Below are positions 892 through 14,676 of a DNA stretch of 15,112 nucleotides, in pieces. The position numbers and the translations under genes are program-made. The notes beneath the pieces were generated by a model, which saw nothing but the letters and a program-made list of their open reading frames with translations, searched no databases and was not told the DNA's origin. The DNA lies in the IMG/VR virus record IMGVR_UViG_2541047905_000022; one strand, 5' to 3'. Numbering within the stretch: position 1 is the first letter of the stretch; every line of letters begins with the position of its first letter. Source of the DNA: a virus (lineage: Duplodnaviria > Heunggongvirae > Uroviricota > Caudoviricetes).

Positions 892-981
892 GGAGAGATG
901 CCGGAGCGGCTGAACGGACCGGTCTCGAAAACCGGAGTGGGGGCAACTCCACCGGGGGTTCAAATCCCCCTCTCTCCGCCA
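892..981 (+). tRNA. serU: tRNA-Ser (anticodon CGA), 90 nt including encoded CCA
   Basis: Acceptor stem GGAGAGA (892-898) pairs with TCTCTCC followed by G-CCA (979-981); anticodon stem CCGGT/ACCGG with 7-nt loop CTCGAAA, anticodon CGA at 926-928; long variable arm typical of class II tRNA-Ser; TTCAAATCC T-loop. Confidence 0.9.
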
Positions 982-1026: not shown

Positions 1027-1062
1027 CTTGGAATTACTTGGAATATTTTCTTGGAATATTTT
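1027..1062. repeat. Tandem direct repeats CTTGGAAT(A/T)(A/T)TT at the attL-proximal end of the integrase gene (possible arm-type integrase binding sites)
   Basis: CTTGGAATTA (1027-1036) followed by two perfect copies of CTTGGAATATTTT (1037-1049, 1050-1062); these overlap the last codons and stop of the integrase gene, immediately next to the tRNA 3' end. Confidence 0.4.
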
Positions 1063-2059
1063 CAGGTAACGGGACATCAAGTGTTGGTGAAACTTTAACC
1101 TTCCTGTCATAGATTAGCACTTGCCCTTCGGTTTTGTGACCAGAGAAAAGTTGCTTATCCCGGCTGCTTCCTTCATAGTCTGAAATTCCTTTCGCCTTCA
1201 GATCATGAAAGGTGAAGTCGGTTAAAATACCTGAAATTTTTCCAGCACGATTTCTTGCTTCTACCCACATTTCGTTAAAGCCTTTGTACATATATCGGTT
1301 GCCGTATTGATTGCTGATCACATAGGCAGATTTTGGTAACTGTTTTGCTTTTTCGATCGCTGCCTGTAATCGTGGACTCCATGCTTTTATCTGTTTTTTT
1401 CCGGTTTTCCCTTGCTGGATGAATATCCCGTCGTTTCCAATCTGTTCCCATTTCAGCGATAACACATCGGAAACCCTCGCTGCACACAGATAGGCAATTT
1501 CCATTGCGATAAAAACAGGAAGAGGTGCAACGCTTAATACTGCCTGGTATTCTTTGTCGGTTACATATCGTTCGCGGTTTTTGGCCTTGAATTTACTTAC
1601 ACCTGCACATGGGTTAGCCTTGACGTACCCTCGCTCATACCCCCAACTGTAAACACGGGACATACTGCTTTTTTCATGGTTGGCTTGCGTTTTACTCTGC
1701 TCCCCTCTTTTGTCCATGTATCGACGGATGTGTTCTGGTTTTATGGAATCCGCTGGTACCTTACCGAATACGGCAAGCAACTTTTTTTGATGTTGCAGAT
1801 AATCTTTTTGTGTTCTTGGACTAAGGTCACTGTAACAGGCGCTGGCGAGGAATTTTTCCCACAAGCGACCGAATGTCATTGCACGATCGCGATTATTTAC
1901 AGTTTCCTCATACTTTTTCCATAAAGCAGCTAAACCATCCTTGATGGCGGTTAGTGTGACAGATTCTCTGGATGTTGGTTTCCATACATAACTATATTTA
2001 TTTGGGTATACATTTGGAGGTAATTTTTCGTGTTCAGGATTTTTCCTTCGTCTTCCCAT
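1034..2059 (-). CDS. int: Phage integrase, tyrosine recombinase family, 341 aa
   Basis: ORF track 1034..2059; C-terminal half carries a tyrosine-recombinase-like signature (CAARVSDVLSLKWEQI ... FTFHDLKAKG ... VLIYDRK); gene ends 52 bp from the tRNA 3' end and points toward it, the classic tRNA-attL-int arrangement. Confidence 0.9.
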   Translation of the reverse strand: MGRRRKNPEHEKLPPNVYPNKYSYVWKPTSRESVTLTAIKDGLAALWKKYEETVNNRDRAMTFGRLWEKFLASACYSDLSPRTQKDYLQHQKKLLAVFGKVPADSIKPEHIRRYMDKRGEQSKTQANHEKSSMSRVYSWGYERGYVKANPCAGVSKFKAKNRERYVTDKEYQAVLSVAPLPVFIAMEIAYLCAARVSDVLSLKWEQIGNDGIFIQQGKTGKKQIKAWSPRLQAAIEKAKQLPKSAYVISNQYGNRYMYKGFNEMWVEARNRAGKISGILTDFTFHDLKAKGISDYEGSSRDKQLFSGHKTEGQVLIYDRKVKVSPTLDVPLPENIPRKYSK

Positions 2060-5274: not shown

Positions 5275-5832
5275 TCAACAATGAATTTTTAGCAATTGCT
5301 CCACAGTCATATTTTTAATTGCGCTCCGGTTTACAAGAGTCCATCCTTGTTTCTCCAGATAAAACCGGAAGGTATCCAGGGTGCAGACCATTGCGCCGTC
5401 AGGAACGGTTTCAGTGAATTTGATATTGCCGTGTTCGTCGAGACGGATAACCAGGGTGCGTCCGTCCCCGTGAATCATTTTGTCGGGAGACGGGGCGTTA
5501 TTCTGGCGCAGTTCTGCTTCCATGCGGTCGAACTCAGCAATGTATGCCTCTTTAAATGCAGCGGCTTTTTTGCCAGTGAAGCCCATCACCAGGAAAACGA
5601 AGCCGTTTTTGGTGATTTGGTACATTGGGAGTTTGCGCCCGGTTGAGTCGGTGTATTCGCTTGACACAAAATTGTGCTCAGTGAATTTTGCTGAACAGTC
5701 CAGATTGCGAATTTTATCCAACACTCGTTCGTGGCGTTTGCCAAAGAACTCGGCGATCGCAACAGACGTAGTGACAGCGCGACCATTTTCGATGGTTACG
5801 TCAGGGTGAGAAAGGGTAAGGATAGTAGCCAT
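5275..5832 (-). CDS. rha: Phage regulatory protein Rha family, 185 aa
   Basis: ORF 5275..5889 trimmed to the internal ATG at 5832, which has a GGAGG Shine-Dalgarno 8 nt upstream; N-terminal domain MATILTLSHPDVTIENGRAVTTSVAIAEFFGKRHERVLDKIRNL... is the characteristic Rha fold sequence. Confidence 0.85.
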   Translation of the reverse strand: MATILTLSHPDVTIENGRAVTTSVAIAEFFGKRHERVLDKIRNLDCSAKFTEHNFVSSEYTDSTGRKLPMYQITKNGFVFLVMGFTGKKAAAFKEAYIAEFDRMEAELRQNNAPSPDKMIHGDGRTLVIRLDEHGNIKFTETVPDGAMVCTLDTFRFYLEKQGWTLVNRSAIKNMTVEQLLKIHC

Positions 5833-6002
5833 GATGGCAGCCTCCGCGATGAATTTGATTAACTCACCACCGAGGTTTTCCACGACCATAAGGGTGGTGA
5901 GACGTACAGGGGTGGAAAATACCGGTCATCACGGAACCCGGCCAGCCTTGCGGCTGCCCTGCACGCCCCACCATAATGCGAATGTGGCTGTGCTTAACGC
6001 AT

Positions 6003-6025
6003 AAAAAAACCGCCTGAGCGCGGTT
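6003..6025 (-). terminator. Rho-independent terminator (minus strand) between DicF and rha
   Basis: On the minus strand: stem ACCGC - loop GCTCAG - GCGGT followed by a run of 7 U (plus-strand A7 at 6003-6009). Confidence 0.5.
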
Positions 6026-6318
6026 ATGCGCCGTGAATGATTTCGGGTTTCCACGCCCGGCACCCGTTTTATGAGGTGCAGGTGCACTATAATTCCACCC
6101 GTTCTGGTTTTCAATAGCTACATTCAACATTTTCTCTACCTTTCATCACCGAAGTGAACTTTGTTGATGCGGTGCCTGGTGCCTCCAGGTGACGTTAACC
6201 AGTTAACAATTAACGTCGGATACAGAGCATTCCCGTTACGCCCGTAAAAGACCGCTTGTTTTAACTGTTCCGCGTGCGCTGAGCCGCATTCACCGCATCA
6301 CAAAATTCACTTTAAAAA

Positions 6319-6371
6319 GGGCGGCAGAGCAGTCACGGAGTAGAACTGATACCGCCAAAAGTCACCAGAAA
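6319..6371 (-). ncRNA. dicF: DicF small regulatory RNA (ftsZ-targeting antisense sRNA of dicB-type prophage operons)
   Basis: Minus-strand sequence TTTCTGGTGACTTTTGGCGGTATCAGTTCTACTCCGTGACTGCTCTGCCGCCC followed by TTTTT differs at only 2 of 53 positions from the E. coli K-12 DicF sequence as I recall it; located upstream of dicB as expected. Confidence 0.85.
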
Positions 6372-11696: not shown

Positions 11697-12383
11697 ATGA
11701 CCCCAATAAAAATATTTATGACTATTGCTGATTTCAAACGGCCTAAATTGGAGCTCCCAAACGGGGCAAACAAACTACTACTGCACTCTTGCTGTGCTCC
11801 ATGTTCCGGTGAAGTGATGGAGGCGCTTCAGGCCTCGGGAATCGACTACACCATCTTTTTCTACAACCCGAACATTCATCCTCAGAAAGAGTATTTAATT
11901 CGTAAGGATGAAAATATTCGCTTTGCTGAACAACACGGCGTGCCGTTTATCGATGCTGATTACGACACCGACAACTGGTTTGAACGTGCCAAAGGAATGG
12001 AATGGGAGCCTGAGAGGGGGATCCGTTGTACCATGTGTTTTGACATGCGTTTTGAGCGGACAGCGTTGTACGCTGCTGAAAATGGTTTCAGTGTGATCAG
12101 CAGTTCACTGGGCATTTCACGCTGGAAAAATATGCAGCAGGTTAACGAGTGTGGGCGGCGAGCTGTTGCGCATTATCCGGGTATGGTGTACTGGGATTAT
12201 AACTGGCGCAAGCAGGGCGGCTCGTCCCGTATGATTGAAATCAGCAAGCGCGAAAAATTCTATCAGCAGGAATATTGTGGCTGTGTGTATTCTCTGCGCG
12301 ATACCAATCTACACCGCAAATCTCAGGGACGCCCTCTTATCAAAATTGGCCAACTCCACTACGGAAAAGAAGAGAAGGAGTGA
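11697..12383 (+). CDS. queH: Epoxyqueuosine reductase QueH (DUF208 family), 228 aa
   Basis: ORF 11697..12383; hallmark QueH motifs [14 protein letters not shown] (N-terminal), [15 protein letters not shown] (central) and [13 protein letters not shown] (C-terminal). No clear Shine-Dalgarno before either candidate ATG (11697 or 11718), so the start is uncertain. Confidence 0.8.
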
Positions 12384-12415
12384 TTTTATGGATCACCTTT
12401 CTGATTGATTTCATA

Positions 12416-12444
12416 TTGGCGAGGTGACGTGAGTTAAGTAGAAT
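12416..12444 (+). promoter_or_regulatory. Candidate promoter of the hok-type toxin mRNA
   Basis: -35 TTGGCG (12416-12421), 17-nt spacer, -10 TAGAAT (12439-12444); the predicted transcript 5' end GGCTGCGGGTGCTTGAGG (about 12446-12463) is near-complementary to the 3' region CCTCAACGCACCCGCA (about 12826-12841), a fold-back-inhibition arrangement typical of hok mRNAs. Confidence 0.4.
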
Positions 12445-12499
12445 GGCTGCGGGTGCTTGAGGCTATCTGTCTCAGGCATGAACACTGAAAGGCAGATAG

Positions 12500-12572
12500 A
12501 GAAAAGCCCCAGTTAACATTTCGCGTCCTGCAAGACGCTTAACATTAATCTGAGGCCCAATCTATGTCTCAC
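12500..12572 (-). ncRNA. Candidate Sok-like antisense RNA of the hok locus
   Basis: Minus-strand -35 TTGCCT (12607..12602), 17-nt spacer, -10 TAACCT (12584..12579); the predicted antisense transcript would cover the GAGG Shine-Dalgarno (12552-12555) and in-frame upstream ATG (12564) of the hok leader. The 3' end is not defined; a GCGTC/GACGC hairpin lies at about 12522-12537. Confidence 0.3.
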
Positions 12573-12620
12573 AAATGTAGGTTAGCCTCTTACGTGCCGA
12601 AAGGCAAGGGGAAGCAGGCT

Positions 12621-12776
12621 ATGAAGCAGCAAAAGGCGATGTTAATCGCCCTGATCGTCATCTGTTTAACCGTCATTGTGACGGCACTGGTAACGAGGAA
12701 AGACCTCTGCGAGGTACGAATCCGAACCGGCCAGACGGAGGTCGCTGTCTTCACAGCTTACGAACCTGAGGAGTAA
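12621..12776 (+). CDS. hok: Hok/Gef family type I toxin (HokD/RelF-like), 51 aa
   Basis: ATG at 12621; product MKQQKAMLIALIVICLTVIVTALVTRKDLCEVRIRTGQTEVAVFTAYEPEE, which I recognise as Hok-family (essentially HokD/RelF); single transmembrane helix plus conserved C-terminal tail. The ORF track extends it in-frame to 12564 (70 aa), a mok-like upstream start. Confidence 0.85.
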   Translation: MKQQKAMLIALIVICLTVIVTALVTRKDLCEVRIRTGQTEVAVFTAYEPEE

Positions 12777-12845
12777 GAGACCCGGCGGGGGAGTAATCTC
12801 CCGCCACCTCTGATGTGCCAGGCATCCTCAACGCACCCGCACTTA

Positions 12846-12866
12846 ACCCGCTTCGGCGGGTTTTTG
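12846..12866 (+). terminator. Rho-independent terminator of the hok mRNA
   Basis: Stem CCCGC - loop TTCG - GCGGG (12847-12860) followed by TTTTT (12861-12865). Confidence 0.7.
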
Positions 12867-12877
12867 CATTAGTCTGG

Positions 12878-12906
12878 TTGACAAAAATAGAAAAATGCGA
12901 AAATAT
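12878..12906 (+). promoter_or_regulatory. Candidate promoter for the two-gene cassette
   Basis: Perfect -35 TTGACA at 12878-12883; 17-nt spacer; weak -10 AAATAT (12901-12906); about 36 nt upstream of the ATG at 12942. Confidence 0.35.
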
Positions 12907-12941
12907 GTGGTTTACGAATTCTAAAAAAAGCGAAACTTGAA

Positions 12942-13592
12942 ATGAATGAAAATCAGTTAGCTCCTTGTTGGGAATTTCAACCTTATCTTGCTGAAAACTA
13001 TGTTCGCCACTTGTTGGCGGAGATCGCTAACGTACTTGAGCAGCTGTACTATCATAAGCACGCATTAGACAGCAACTGGTCTGAAGGTGTAAGGGCTTAT
13101 GATTGGGTCAGAAATCATCTTATTCAAAATGAAGATGCAATTCCTGGCCTTGAGATGATTTCCAAGGGGTTGGACTATGTAGTTGCTTTAAATAAAGTTC
13201 CGCTACAATTTACCAAAGATTGCATTAATAACCCCAAAAAGAAACATCGTCTGCGTCGAAATAAAGTAGAGTATGAGCAGCTCTCATTGTTTGGTGATGT
13301 TGAGGCTGAGCAAGATATTACATGGCGAGTCATAGCTGAGCCTTTTTTATCCGAAGAGGGCGATGGTGAATTAGAGTCCACACTGCCTCGTTGGGAGGTA
13401 GCTCTTGTTGGATTTAATACTTATGGTGCTCAGATTAGTATAGTTTCTCATCAATCTACAGCATCGATGCCGCTTATGCCTCTTGATTATAACACACTCC
13501 CTGACGAAGCGGAGATTAATAAGGTGCCTCTTCGTCGGCGTACGAAGGATAAAGATTTGGATGTGAGCAGTGATGGAACATCAGGTGAATAA
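12942..13592 (+). CDS. Hypothetical protein of unknown function, 216 aa (first gene of a two-gene cassette)
   Basis: ORF 12942..13592; no family recognised; helical N-terminal half, basic patch KKKHRLRRNK, acidic C-terminal tail; visibly more AT-rich than the flanking replication genes; 3' end overlaps the next gene by 20 nt. Confidence 0.7.
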   Translation: MNENQLAPCWEFQPYLAENYVRHLLAEIANVLEQLYYHKHALDSNWSEGVRAYDWVRNHLIQNEDAIPGLEMISKGLDYVVALNKVPLQFTKDCINNPKKKHRLRRNKVEYEQLSLFGDVEAEQDITWRVIAEPFLSEEGDGELESTLPRWEVALVGFNTYGAQISIVSHQSTASMPLMPLDYNTLPDEAEINKVPLRRRTKDKDLDVSSDGTSGE

Positions 13593-14676
13593 CTTCACTG
13601 AGTATCGGGGTGATAAGCTCAAACTAGCGAGAATGGCTGTTGGGCTTTCTTGTGAAGAGTTAGCCGAAAAAATTGGCAAGACAAAGCAATTCGTTAGCAA
13701 ACTGGAGAAGGGGTGCAGGCCATCGGAGCAATGTCTTGAGTTAATATCTTCAGCGCTTATGATTAAGTCCAGTTTTCTTTTTACTGAACGAAAATACGCT
13801 CTGGAAAGTGATGTCTGCCATTTTCGGAGTAAGAAGTCCAGGACTCAAACGCTGACTAATAGTGTATTGGCCAGGGCTGAGATTCTTAATATTATAATTT
13901 CTGCTGTTGAAGGTGAAATCGAATTTCCTGACGTTAACATACCGGAGCACCCAGGGGCTGAATTACTTACTCCGAATGATATTGAGCGAGTGGCAGAAGA
14001 TTGTCGCCGTGCCTGGAATTTAGGTCTTGGCCCTATATCATCAATGGTTAAATTGGCGGAGAGTTTAGGGGTAATCGTTGCGCATGTTACGGGAGTCGAT
14101 GATCGTGTTGATGCTTTTACTGTTCACAATAACAGGCCTGTTATCATCAGGAACAATGTTAAAAAAAGCATATGTAGATTTCGCTCTGATTTAGGTCATG
14201 AATTAGGGCATTTAGTAATGCATGAGGGCATAACGACAGGTGATAAACTTACGGAATCACAAGCCGATCACTTTTCGAGCGCCTTATTAGTTCCCAGGTT
14301 ATCTTTCATTAAAGAATTTCCACGAATACGAGGTAAGCAATTCGACTGGAATGCTCTGGTTGAATTTAAACTTAGATGGAAAATCAGCCTTAAAATGTGT
14401 ATTTATCGAGCCAGCGCATTAGGCTTATTGACCCAGGAACAGGCAAGAACTGGCTATATGCATCTTAATTCCAGAGGGTATACGAGAGTTGAACCTGGTG
14501 ATGAACTTTTGCGCCCTGAAGAACCCGGCATGCTGGCCGAGGCGATTGAAATGCTGGATGATGCAACCTGGCTAAGAATTCTTATGAAAACTGGCTTGAG
14601 CCAAGATTTAATTCGTGAGTTGTTCTCCATCAACAGACCTATTACAAATCCAAGAAATATTTTCCAGATTGTTTGA
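13573..14676 (+). CDS. HTH XRE-family regulator fused to ImmA/IrrE-type (M78, COG2856) zinc metallopeptidase domain, 367 aa
   Basis: ORF 13570..14676 with ATG at 13573; N-terminal HTH LKLARMAVGLSCEELAEKIGKTKQFVSKLEKG; peptidase HEXXH motif in DLGHELGHLVMHE; domain order HTH then ImmA-like is the fused version of ImmR/ImmA or CapH/CapP-type regulator pairs. Confidence 0.8.
   Translation: MEHQVNNFTEYRGDKLKLARMAVGLSCEELAEKIGKTKQFVSKLEKGCRPSEQCLELISSALMIKSSFLFTERKYALESDVCHFRSKKSRTQTLTNSVLARAEILNIIISAVEGEIEFPDVNIPEHPGAELLTPNDIERVAEDCRRAWNLGLGPISSMVKLAESLGVIVAHVTGVDDRVDAFTVHNNRPVIIRNNVKKSICRFRSDLGHELGHLVMHEGITTGDKLTESQADHFSSALLVPRLSFIKEFPRIRGKQFDWNALVEFKLRWKISLKMCIYRASALGLLTQEQARTGYMHLNSRGYTRVEPGDELLRPEEPGMLAEAIEMLDDATWLRILMKTGLSQDLIRELFSINRPITNPRNIFQIV

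Follow-up and report, generated by a model that had tools for sequence, protein, structure and literature searches.

A lambdoid E. coli prophage at tRNA-Ser(CGA) carries, in its early-right region, what we identify with high confidence as a complete type I toxin-antitoxin cassette of the hok/mok/sok kind; it occupies positions 12416-12866 of the window (the whole 15,112-nt stretch of DNA analysed here, IMG/VR record IMGVR_UViG_2541047905_000022). Three landmarks place it:

892-981: tRNA-Ser(CGA)
11697-12383: QueH gene, the upstream neighbour of the hok locus (Pfam QueH, 1.1e-65)
12942-13592: 216-aa open reading frame without annotation, the downstream neighbour of the hok locus

Starting from tRNA-Ser(CGA), the gene order is integrase, large exonuclease, Rha, C4/isrK/DicF small RNAs, CI-like repressor, YdaS/T, O/P-type replication proteins, DUF1627, DUF977, and QueH, followed by the hok locus. 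The fully annotated E. coli 118UI has the same module and continues downstream with DUF968, RusA, and the Q antiterminator. Strains with this prophage include 118UI, ML35, and VR50. The hok cassette is positioned between the replication genes plus queH on one side and the Q antiterminator region on the other.

The toxin gene and the limits of its messenger RNA are as follows:

12416-12444, plus strand: mok-hok promoter (-35 TTGGCG at 12416-12421, 17-nt spacer, -10 TAGAAT at 12439-12444)
12451-12865, plus strand: predicted full-length mok-hok mRNA, about 415 nt (5' end placed where the RF01794 match begins and by the -10 spacing, 3' end by the terminator)
12606-12611, plus strand: hok Shine-Dalgarno AAGGGG (AAGGAG in most relatives in the 38-locus alignment, the difference being G12610)
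12621-12776, plus strand: hok, encoding a 51-aa toxin identical to E. coli HokD (RelF) (Pfam HOK_GEF; RefSeq hokD; HOKD_ECOLI)
12845-12865, plus strand: intrinsic terminator of the mok-hok mRNA (7-bp stem and 4-nt loop at 12845-12862, then a T run; terminator scan)

Positions 12451-12626 on the plus strand match the whole of the Rfam hok/sok model RF01794 (model positions 1-157 of 157) with 120.5 bits against a gathering score of 59 (E = 1.6e-27), and the 51-aa open reading frame matches Pfam HOK_GEF with 81.6 bits against a cut-off of 22 (E = 3e-23). NCBIfam subfamily and equivalog models also match this reading frame, with scores under their cut-offs. The earlier note on this DNA had read the locus as a hok-type toxin gene with a fold-back element; these two family matches and the covariation of the 5'/3' helix described below bear this out, and every sequence feature that it named was found at or near the position it gave. 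The 481 nt of 12400-12880 are 100% identical to loci called hokD in many E. coli chromosomes. Of 5426 complete E. coli genomes, 4938 contain similar sequence, at a median of two and a maximum of nine places per genome. The closest studied system is hokW-sokW of the Stx2 prophage Sp5, to which the 12416-12866 locus is about 93% identical at the nucleotide level from promoter to fbi. HokD itself was among the control sequences, earlier shown to be toxic, in a recent toxicity assay (preprint 10.1101/2025.08.07.668861).

A consensus promoter scan of 12300-13000 found the mok-hok promoter as the sole promoter-like site, and its -10 TAGAAT aligns to TATAAT in K-12 hokC and TAGAAT in Sp5 hokW. Transcription probably starts near 12451, six or seven bases past this -10, by analogy with R1 and from where the Rfam match begins. 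The minimum free energy (MFE) fold of 12446-12866 has an energy of -173.4 kcal/mol (z = -7.0, 100 shuffles) and includes the terminator hairpin.

For comparison, we surveyed 59 related loci from one-genome-per-species contigs, together with phage and plasmid copies, and aligned 38 non-redundant intact loci with MAFFT. These 38 loci come from Escherichia, Shigella, Kluyvera, Citrobacter, Pseudocitrobacter, Pantoea, Erwinia, Kalamiella, and Photorhabdus, from three phages, and from an R1-type plasmid.

The two ends of the predicted mRNA carry the partners of a long-range helix, and a further segment could pair with the 5' partner:

12448-12462, plus strand: tac element, 5' partner of the fold-back helix (conserved core 12451-12462; MFE fold and 38-locus conservation)
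12504-12510, plus strand: AAGCCCC, alternative partner of tac, pairing with 12451-12458 (RF01794 consensus structure)
12826-12841, plus strand: fbi element, 3' partner of tac (conserved core 12826-12838; fold, conservation, and shuffles)

The earlier note had described the 5' end (GGCTGCGGGTGCTTGAGG, 12445-12462) as nearly complementary to a 3' segment (CCTCAACGCACCCGCA, 12826-12841) and taken this as the mark of fold-back inhibition. Structure prediction over 12446-12866 agrees: the MFE fold pairs 12448-12462 with 12826-12841 in a 15-bp helix with a bulged C12832, which closes the whole molecule. The duplex energy is -27.5 kcal/mol, compared with -21.4 +/- 2.2 kcal/mol for dinucleotide shuffles of the remaining mRNA (13 in 1000 as good), and the conserved 12-nt core is equalled by only 2 of 1000 shuffles. 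At this locus the tac/fbi duplex beats every other window of its own mRNA, as it does in most, though not all, of the 38 loci.

The complementarity is also conserved in homologous loci, where its absence would have counted against the proposal. Across the 38 loci, 85% of the cells in the tac/fbi columns are paired, and sliding the 3' partner by one to three columns lowers this to 34-55%. Positions 12454 and 12835 show a compensatory change (25 of the 38 loci have U-A and 10 have C-G), and several further pairs alternate between G-C and G-U. When each sequence is folded as its own duplex, the Photorhabdus, Pantoea, and Erwinia loci, which have no bulge, form unbroken helices of 12-20 bp. Column-wise covariation undercounts pairing in the helix's distal half: having no bulged C, Photorhabdus-type loci sit one column out of register in the MAFFT alignment, whereas duplex folding shows that they pair perfectly. 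The three outermost pairs (12448-12450 with 12839-12841) are poorly conserved and may be absent from the RNA, since the likely transcript start at about 12451 lies downstream of 12448-12450. Chance complementarity was considered as a source of the tac/fbi match and is ruled out by the shuffles together with the covariation. The conserved pairing reproduces a published conclusion: tac/fbi is described as a phylogenetically conserved trait of hok mRNAs (Gultyaev, Franch and Gerdes 1997, as reported in PMC9841398).

The alternative tac partner at 12504-12510 is near-invariant in the 38 loci. By the R1 model (PMC9841398), the stem that it forms with tac would belong to the processed, active mRNA, and the two pairings of tac would make up a conformational switch. 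Plain MFE and partition-function folding of a 3'-truncated RNA (12446-12824) did not reproduce the R1 'open' structure, and the unpaired probability of the mok Shine-Dalgarno was 0.19 in both forms, so the proposed refolding step rests on homology with R1.

Between the fold-back partners lie the upstream start and the antisense gene that would act on it:

12552-12555, plus strand: mok Shine-Dalgarno GAGG (from the sequence; found in 37 of 38 loci, the R1-type row being the exception)
12558-12584, plus strand: Sok-target hairpin with a CUCA loop, the mok ATG lying in the 5' arm (MFE fold and Rfam consensus)
12564-12776, plus strand: mok, a 70-codon reading frame in register with hok and so an N-terminally extended Hok (list of open reading frames)
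12498-12572, minus strand: predicted Sok antisense RNA of about 75 nt (ends projected from K-12 sokC)
12579-12607, minus strand: Sok promoter (-35 TTGCCT at 12607-12602, 17-nt spacer, -10 TAACCT at 12584-12579)

By analogy with R1, the CUCA loop would be of the YUNR (U-turn) type. The mok ATG at 12564-12566 lies 57 nt upstream of the hok ATG at 12621, and the two are in frame, as the earlier note had pointed out in proposing a possible 70-aa product. The note was also right that the classical mok of R1 is read in a different frame from hok: in R1/R100 the offset is 58 nt (+1 frame), the 70-aa mok product is unrelated to Hok, and the sequence is unchanged in more than 2600 plasmids. The numbering in the R1 literature concurs, placing the ATG of mok at 116-118 and that of hok at 174-176 (PMC9841398).

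What did not hold is the suggestion that an in-frame start sets this locus apart, since K-12, VT2-Sakai, and the majority of relatives share it. In E. coli K-12, mokC (16751-16960) and hokC (16751-16903) have a common stop codon and starts exactly 57 nt apart; in VT2-Sakai the 70-aa in-frame product is annotated as orf74, 'gef homolog'; and an R1-type plasmid variant likewise has its mok at 57 nt and in frame. The exact 70-aa protein encoded here is present in at least 1000 contigs in public databases, under Hok family names. An in-frame mok is therefore the common, already annotated state of the hokC/hokD/hokW branch.

The frame itself drifts. Every intact relative surveyed has a mok-hok offset of 56, 57, or 58 nt, with 57 nt in the majority. 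The 58-nt offset (+1 frame) occurs in phage Rac (about 93% identical, with mok and hok annotated separately), Kluyvera, and others, and with the 56-nt offset mok has 19 codons and ends in a stop that overlaps the hok ATG. Because such shifts occur even in a 93%-identical locus, the Mok peptide past the hok start is evidently not under selection. This agrees with R1, where translation of mok is required only up to the ribosome-binding site of hok (PMC9841398). We also tried the 70-aa reading frame as a single longer toxin gene, a candidate that was rejected because the frame differs between relatives.

The earlier note had further proposed a minus-strand promoter giving a Sok-like RNA over the Shine-Dalgarno and ATG that we assign to mok. 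The consensus scan of 12300-13000 called no minus-strand promoter, since its -10 TAACCT fits only three of six consensus positions. The Sok promoter was instead called from conservation and from the promoter mutated in sokW (PMC8621323). The positions of the -35 and -10 and their exact 17-nt spacing are kept in 38 of 38 loci (with the variants TTGACC, TAATCT, and TATCCT), and Sp5 sokW has exactly the same -35, spacer, and -10. In sokW, primer YO-421 altered exactly this -10; the resulting 'pro-less' construct no longer protected, and providing sokW in trans brought back part of the protection (PMC8621323). The antisense proposal is thus supported, and the RNA that it would produce is predicted. 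In its fold, the 5' tail, which complements the mok ATG region, is left unpaired and is followed by a long hairpin and a U-rich 3' end (-31.4 kcal/mol, z = -4.6). The annotated K-12 sokC (16952-17010) overlaps the mokC start by 9 nt, and for sokW a complementary stretch of 71 nt is described (PMC8621323). A hypervariable patch also falls precisely at the Sok recognition site.

Comparison with known systems shows which parts of the cassette are shared and which are its own. The hokW-sokW locus of Sp5/VT2-Sakai (PMC8621323) likewise has an in-frame 70-codon mok, a lambdoid prophage setting, a 51-aa Hok, and the same Sok promoter. It differs in the Hok C-terminus (FVDYESEK, compared with FTAYEPEE here), in mok codons 2-5, which complement the 5' tail of Sok, in the hok Shine-Dalgarno (GGAG, compared with GGGG here), and in the terminator downstream of fbi. 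K-12 hokD (relF, Qin prophage) encodes an identical Hok and is near-identical from 12608 onwards, across the coding region, fbi, and terminator, but it is fused behind relBE and has lost four parts that are all kept here: promoter, tac, Sok gene, and mok start. Since its homology begins only at about 12608, 13 nt ahead of the hok ATG and directly after relE, the 12416-12866 locus appears to be the complete form and K-12 hokD a 5'-truncated remnant.

K-12 hokC/mokC/sokC (gef) resembles the locus in layout, in its 57-nt in-frame mok, and in having sokC over the mok start, and its Hok is about 82% identical; gef is reportedly described with an in-frame 69-codon reading frame. Unlike the present cassette, hokC is chromosomal and outside a prophage, has IS186 downstream, and has no fbi; the present locus also has 18 extra nt in the Sok hairpin region. 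In R1/R100 hok/mok/sok (parB), the tac, fbi, mok, Sok promoter spacing, and Sok-target arrangement all align with those here, whereas the Hok protein is only about 44% identical to this HokD and the system is plasmid-borne and a proven post-segregational killer.

The best-supported model for the cassette is the R1 scheme carried over by homology, on the strength of the elements, pairing potential, conservation, and covariation described above; processing, refolding, mok-hok coupling, and toxicity we infer. The steps are drawn from work on R1 (PMC9841398, PMC4147584) and on sokW (PMC8621323). The promoter at 12416-12444 would act constitutively to produce a stable mRNA of about 415 nt. In the full-length molecule, the tac-fbi pairing indicated by folding, conservation, and covariation would, as in R1, close the mRNA both to ribosomes and to Sok. 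Slow 3' trimming would remove fbi, whereupon tac would pair with 12504-12510, exposing the mok ribosome-binding site and the Sok-target hairpin; this step is taken from R1, and both pairing partners are conserved here. Ribosomes starting at the mok ATG (12564) would then cross the hok ribosome-binding site and lead to initiation at the hok ATG (12621), if the coupling seen in R1 applies. Since mok is in frame here, mok-starting ribosomes would also yield the 70-aa extended Hok. The unstable Sok, a minus-strand RNA of about 75 nt running from 12572 to about 12498, would pair with the mok start, blocking translation and leading to RNase III cleavage. For the 93%-identical sokW, antitoxin activity and its dependence on RNase III and Hfq have been demonstrated (PMC8621323). 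On loss of Sok, the 51-aa Hok would enter the inner membrane and kill or lyse the cell. In Sp5, the source of the most relevant functional data, this step follows induction of the prophage and hastens the release of phage.

Other readings of the same sequence differ from this scheme in the toxin product, in its strength, or in what the cassette is for. A single 70-aa product could be made from the upstream ATG, with no separate 51-aa Hok and with Sok controlling the toxin directly, so that there would be no leader reading frame at all. The frame is open and in register, VT2-Sakai and many database entries carry one 70-aa coding sequence, and the basic 19-residue extension would be compatible with an N-in membrane topology. 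We nevertheless regard this reading as very improbable: all relatives keep the internal ATG together with its Shine-Dalgarno, the upstream start stands at 58 or 56 nt in some of them so that the extension is no conserved part of the toxin, K-12 hokD keeps the 51-aa reading frame without any upstream start, and the 51-aa HokW is toxic by itself (PMC8621323). The scheme with a separate 51-aa Hok could also be structurally intact and functionally weak. Position 12610 is A in 36 of the 38 aligned loci, and it is homologous to A163 of R1, where A163G was recovered as a suppressor of toxicity (PMC9841398). Exact 61-nt matches in E. coli records number about 490 for the G allele and about 3254 for the A allele, counts that are approximate because partial matches are included. 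As the change from GGAG to GGGG is homologous to R1 A163G, this allele may express Hok weakly, although we consider it unlikely that the 12416-12866 copy is an attenuated allele. The broader version, in which the locus is attenuated or silent, a domesticated and non-killing remnant like the chromosomal hok loci of K-12, draws on the same substitution and on the report that chromosomal hokA, hokB, and hokC give no post-segregational killing (preprint 10.1101/2025.08.07.668861). It is to be set against an intact promoter, tac, mok, hok reading frame, Sok promoter, fbi, and terminator, against the G-U wobble that G12610 still allows with the anti-Shine-Dalgarno, against the presence of the unchanged allele in many genomes as well as in E. 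albertii, and against the activity of the 93%-identical Sp5 locus in its native prophage; it too seems to us improbable.

A further reading leaves the mechanics as described and changes the role, from prophage maintenance to the timing of lysis for the benefit of the phage or to superinfection exclusion, and here our judgement is evenly balanced. On the opposing side, the sequence gives no discrimination between these roles, and no enrichment of hok beside defence systems was found in a recent survey (preprint 10.1101/2025.08.07.668861). In favour, hok genes are about four-fold enriched in prophages, and in Sp5 SokW vanishes after mitomycin C, HokW appears about 1 h ahead of the endolysin, and deletion of the locus lowers phage release (PMC8621323). 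We also consider a more specific proposal, which we judge quite unlikely: at the in-frame loci (this one, K-12 hokC, and Sp5 hokW), each mok-initiating ribosome would make a 70-aa Hok, possibly a membrane-inserting second toxin isoform under direct Sok control that is turned on or off by frame drift (0/+1/+2), and, separately, G12610 would be a naturally selected attenuated allele.

The cassette, its RNA switch, and its in-frame leader are already documented, and the exact sequences are public under Hok names, so that the locus carries little weight for discovery and has modest practical value. Part of that value is a clean map of a complete prophage copy, since RefSeq marks only the 51-aa hokD coding sequence at identical loci, and mok and sok are absent from the annotation. 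A recent survey of Hok explicitly omitted Mok and Sok from its analysis (preprint 10.1101/2025.08.07.668861). The frame drift of 56, 57, and 58 nt, the hypervariable Sok-recognition patch, and a common Shine-Dalgarno allele that equals an R1 suppressor could feed the study of insulation and tuning among co-resident hok/sok copies. On the side of nomenclature, the RF01794 model is named 'sok', and its content is the hok mRNA leader.

Sequence identity across the hok locus is unevenly distributed among its closest relatives, falling to 0.73-0.79 at window positions 12556-12575 between flanks at 0.97-1.00 (12 close relatives in alignment A3: the window, related loci L006, L008-L010 and L018-L021, phage Rac, Sp5 and mEp460). 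This low-identity patch coincides with the flank of the mok ATG and mok codons 2-4, which is the region matched by the 5' tail of Sok. On this comparison, the patch looks like a Sok/target recognition sequence that has diversified, and such divergence could prevent cross-talk among several hok/sok copies of one genome.

Many copies of this hok subfamily are found in Photorhabdus genomes (loci L024-L050), including at least six contigs of P. tasmaniensis with the subfamily and tandem copies at L024 and L049. All of the Photorhabdus loci L024-L050 have mok in frame with hok, and in all of them the tac/fbi fold-back helix is without a bulge and fully compensated. Across the wider survey (loci L005-L066), the distance from the mok start to the hok ATG is 56, 57 or 58 nt depending on the relative, so that all three frames are represented; at the 56-nt offset, the mok ORF spans 19 codons and its stop codon overlaps the start of hok (ATGA). 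Mok was explicitly outside the analysis of a recent large Hok survey (preprint 10.1101/2025.08.07.668861).

The hok ribosome-binding site carries an uncommon base:

12606-12611, hok Shine-Dalgarno sequence, variant base at 12610

It reads GGGG in the window, as against GGAG in 36 of the 38 aligned relatives. Position 12610 is homologous to A163 of the R1 plasmid system, where A163G is a toxicity-suppressing substitution (PMC9841398). By analogy with R1, the window hok with G12610 may be a naturally attenuated allele. By approximate counts, the G allele is matched exactly in about 490 E. coli records and the A allele in about 3254.

Codon 47 of hok (window 12759-12762) is a tyrosine codon followed by G, in the context TACG, and corresponds to a reported editing site of hokC/D/E; the introduction of the same preprint (10.1101/2025.08.07.668861) reports that A-to-I editing by TadA recodes Tyr to Cys in these genes.

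Some near-identical copies of the E. coli hok locus (L010, L013, L038, L052, L059) came from oddly labelled assemblies: a Veillonella parvula MAG, Xanthomonas pisi (431-nt contig), Acinetobacter idrijaensis (275-nt contig), a 'Candidatus Scatousia' MAG and a Haemophilus MAG. An 'Actinobacillus phage' (phage match H38) also carries a copy, at 97.5% identity. Contamination or mis-binning most likely accounts for these labels, which would then not name true hosts.

Elsewhere the window contains the following features:

892-981, plus strand, tRNA-Ser(CGA)
1034-2059, minus strand, tyrosine integrase, immediately after the tRNA
5890-5978, minus strand, C4 antisense RNA (Rfam, 78.6 bits, above gathering score)
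6003-6079, minus strand, isrK (Rfam, 67.7 bits, above gathering score)
6319-6370, minus strand, DicF (Rfam, 71.5 bits, above gathering score)
11697-12383, plus strand, prophage-encoded full-length epoxyqueuosine reductase QueH, directly upstream of hok
12942-13592, plus strand, 216-aa ORF, directly downstream of hok
13570-14676, plus strand, 368-aa protein with HTH_3 and IrrE/ImmA-type M78 peptidase domains, overlapping the 216-aa ORF

The tRNA-Ser(CGA)/integrase junction is likely the attachment site of this prophage. In E. coli 118UI the same hok module lies in a prophage adjoining ompW rather than tRNA-Ser(CGA), indicating that the module is common to prophages at different sites. The RefSeq start of QueH is 21 nt later, equivalent to 11718. 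The 216-aa ORF has no Pfam match. Sp5, mEp460 and Rac lack the 216-aa/368-aa pair and have rem after hok, whereas the pair takes that place in the window. The prophage small RNAs C4, isrK and DicF lie in series, adjoining a Rha-family ORF (5275-5889).
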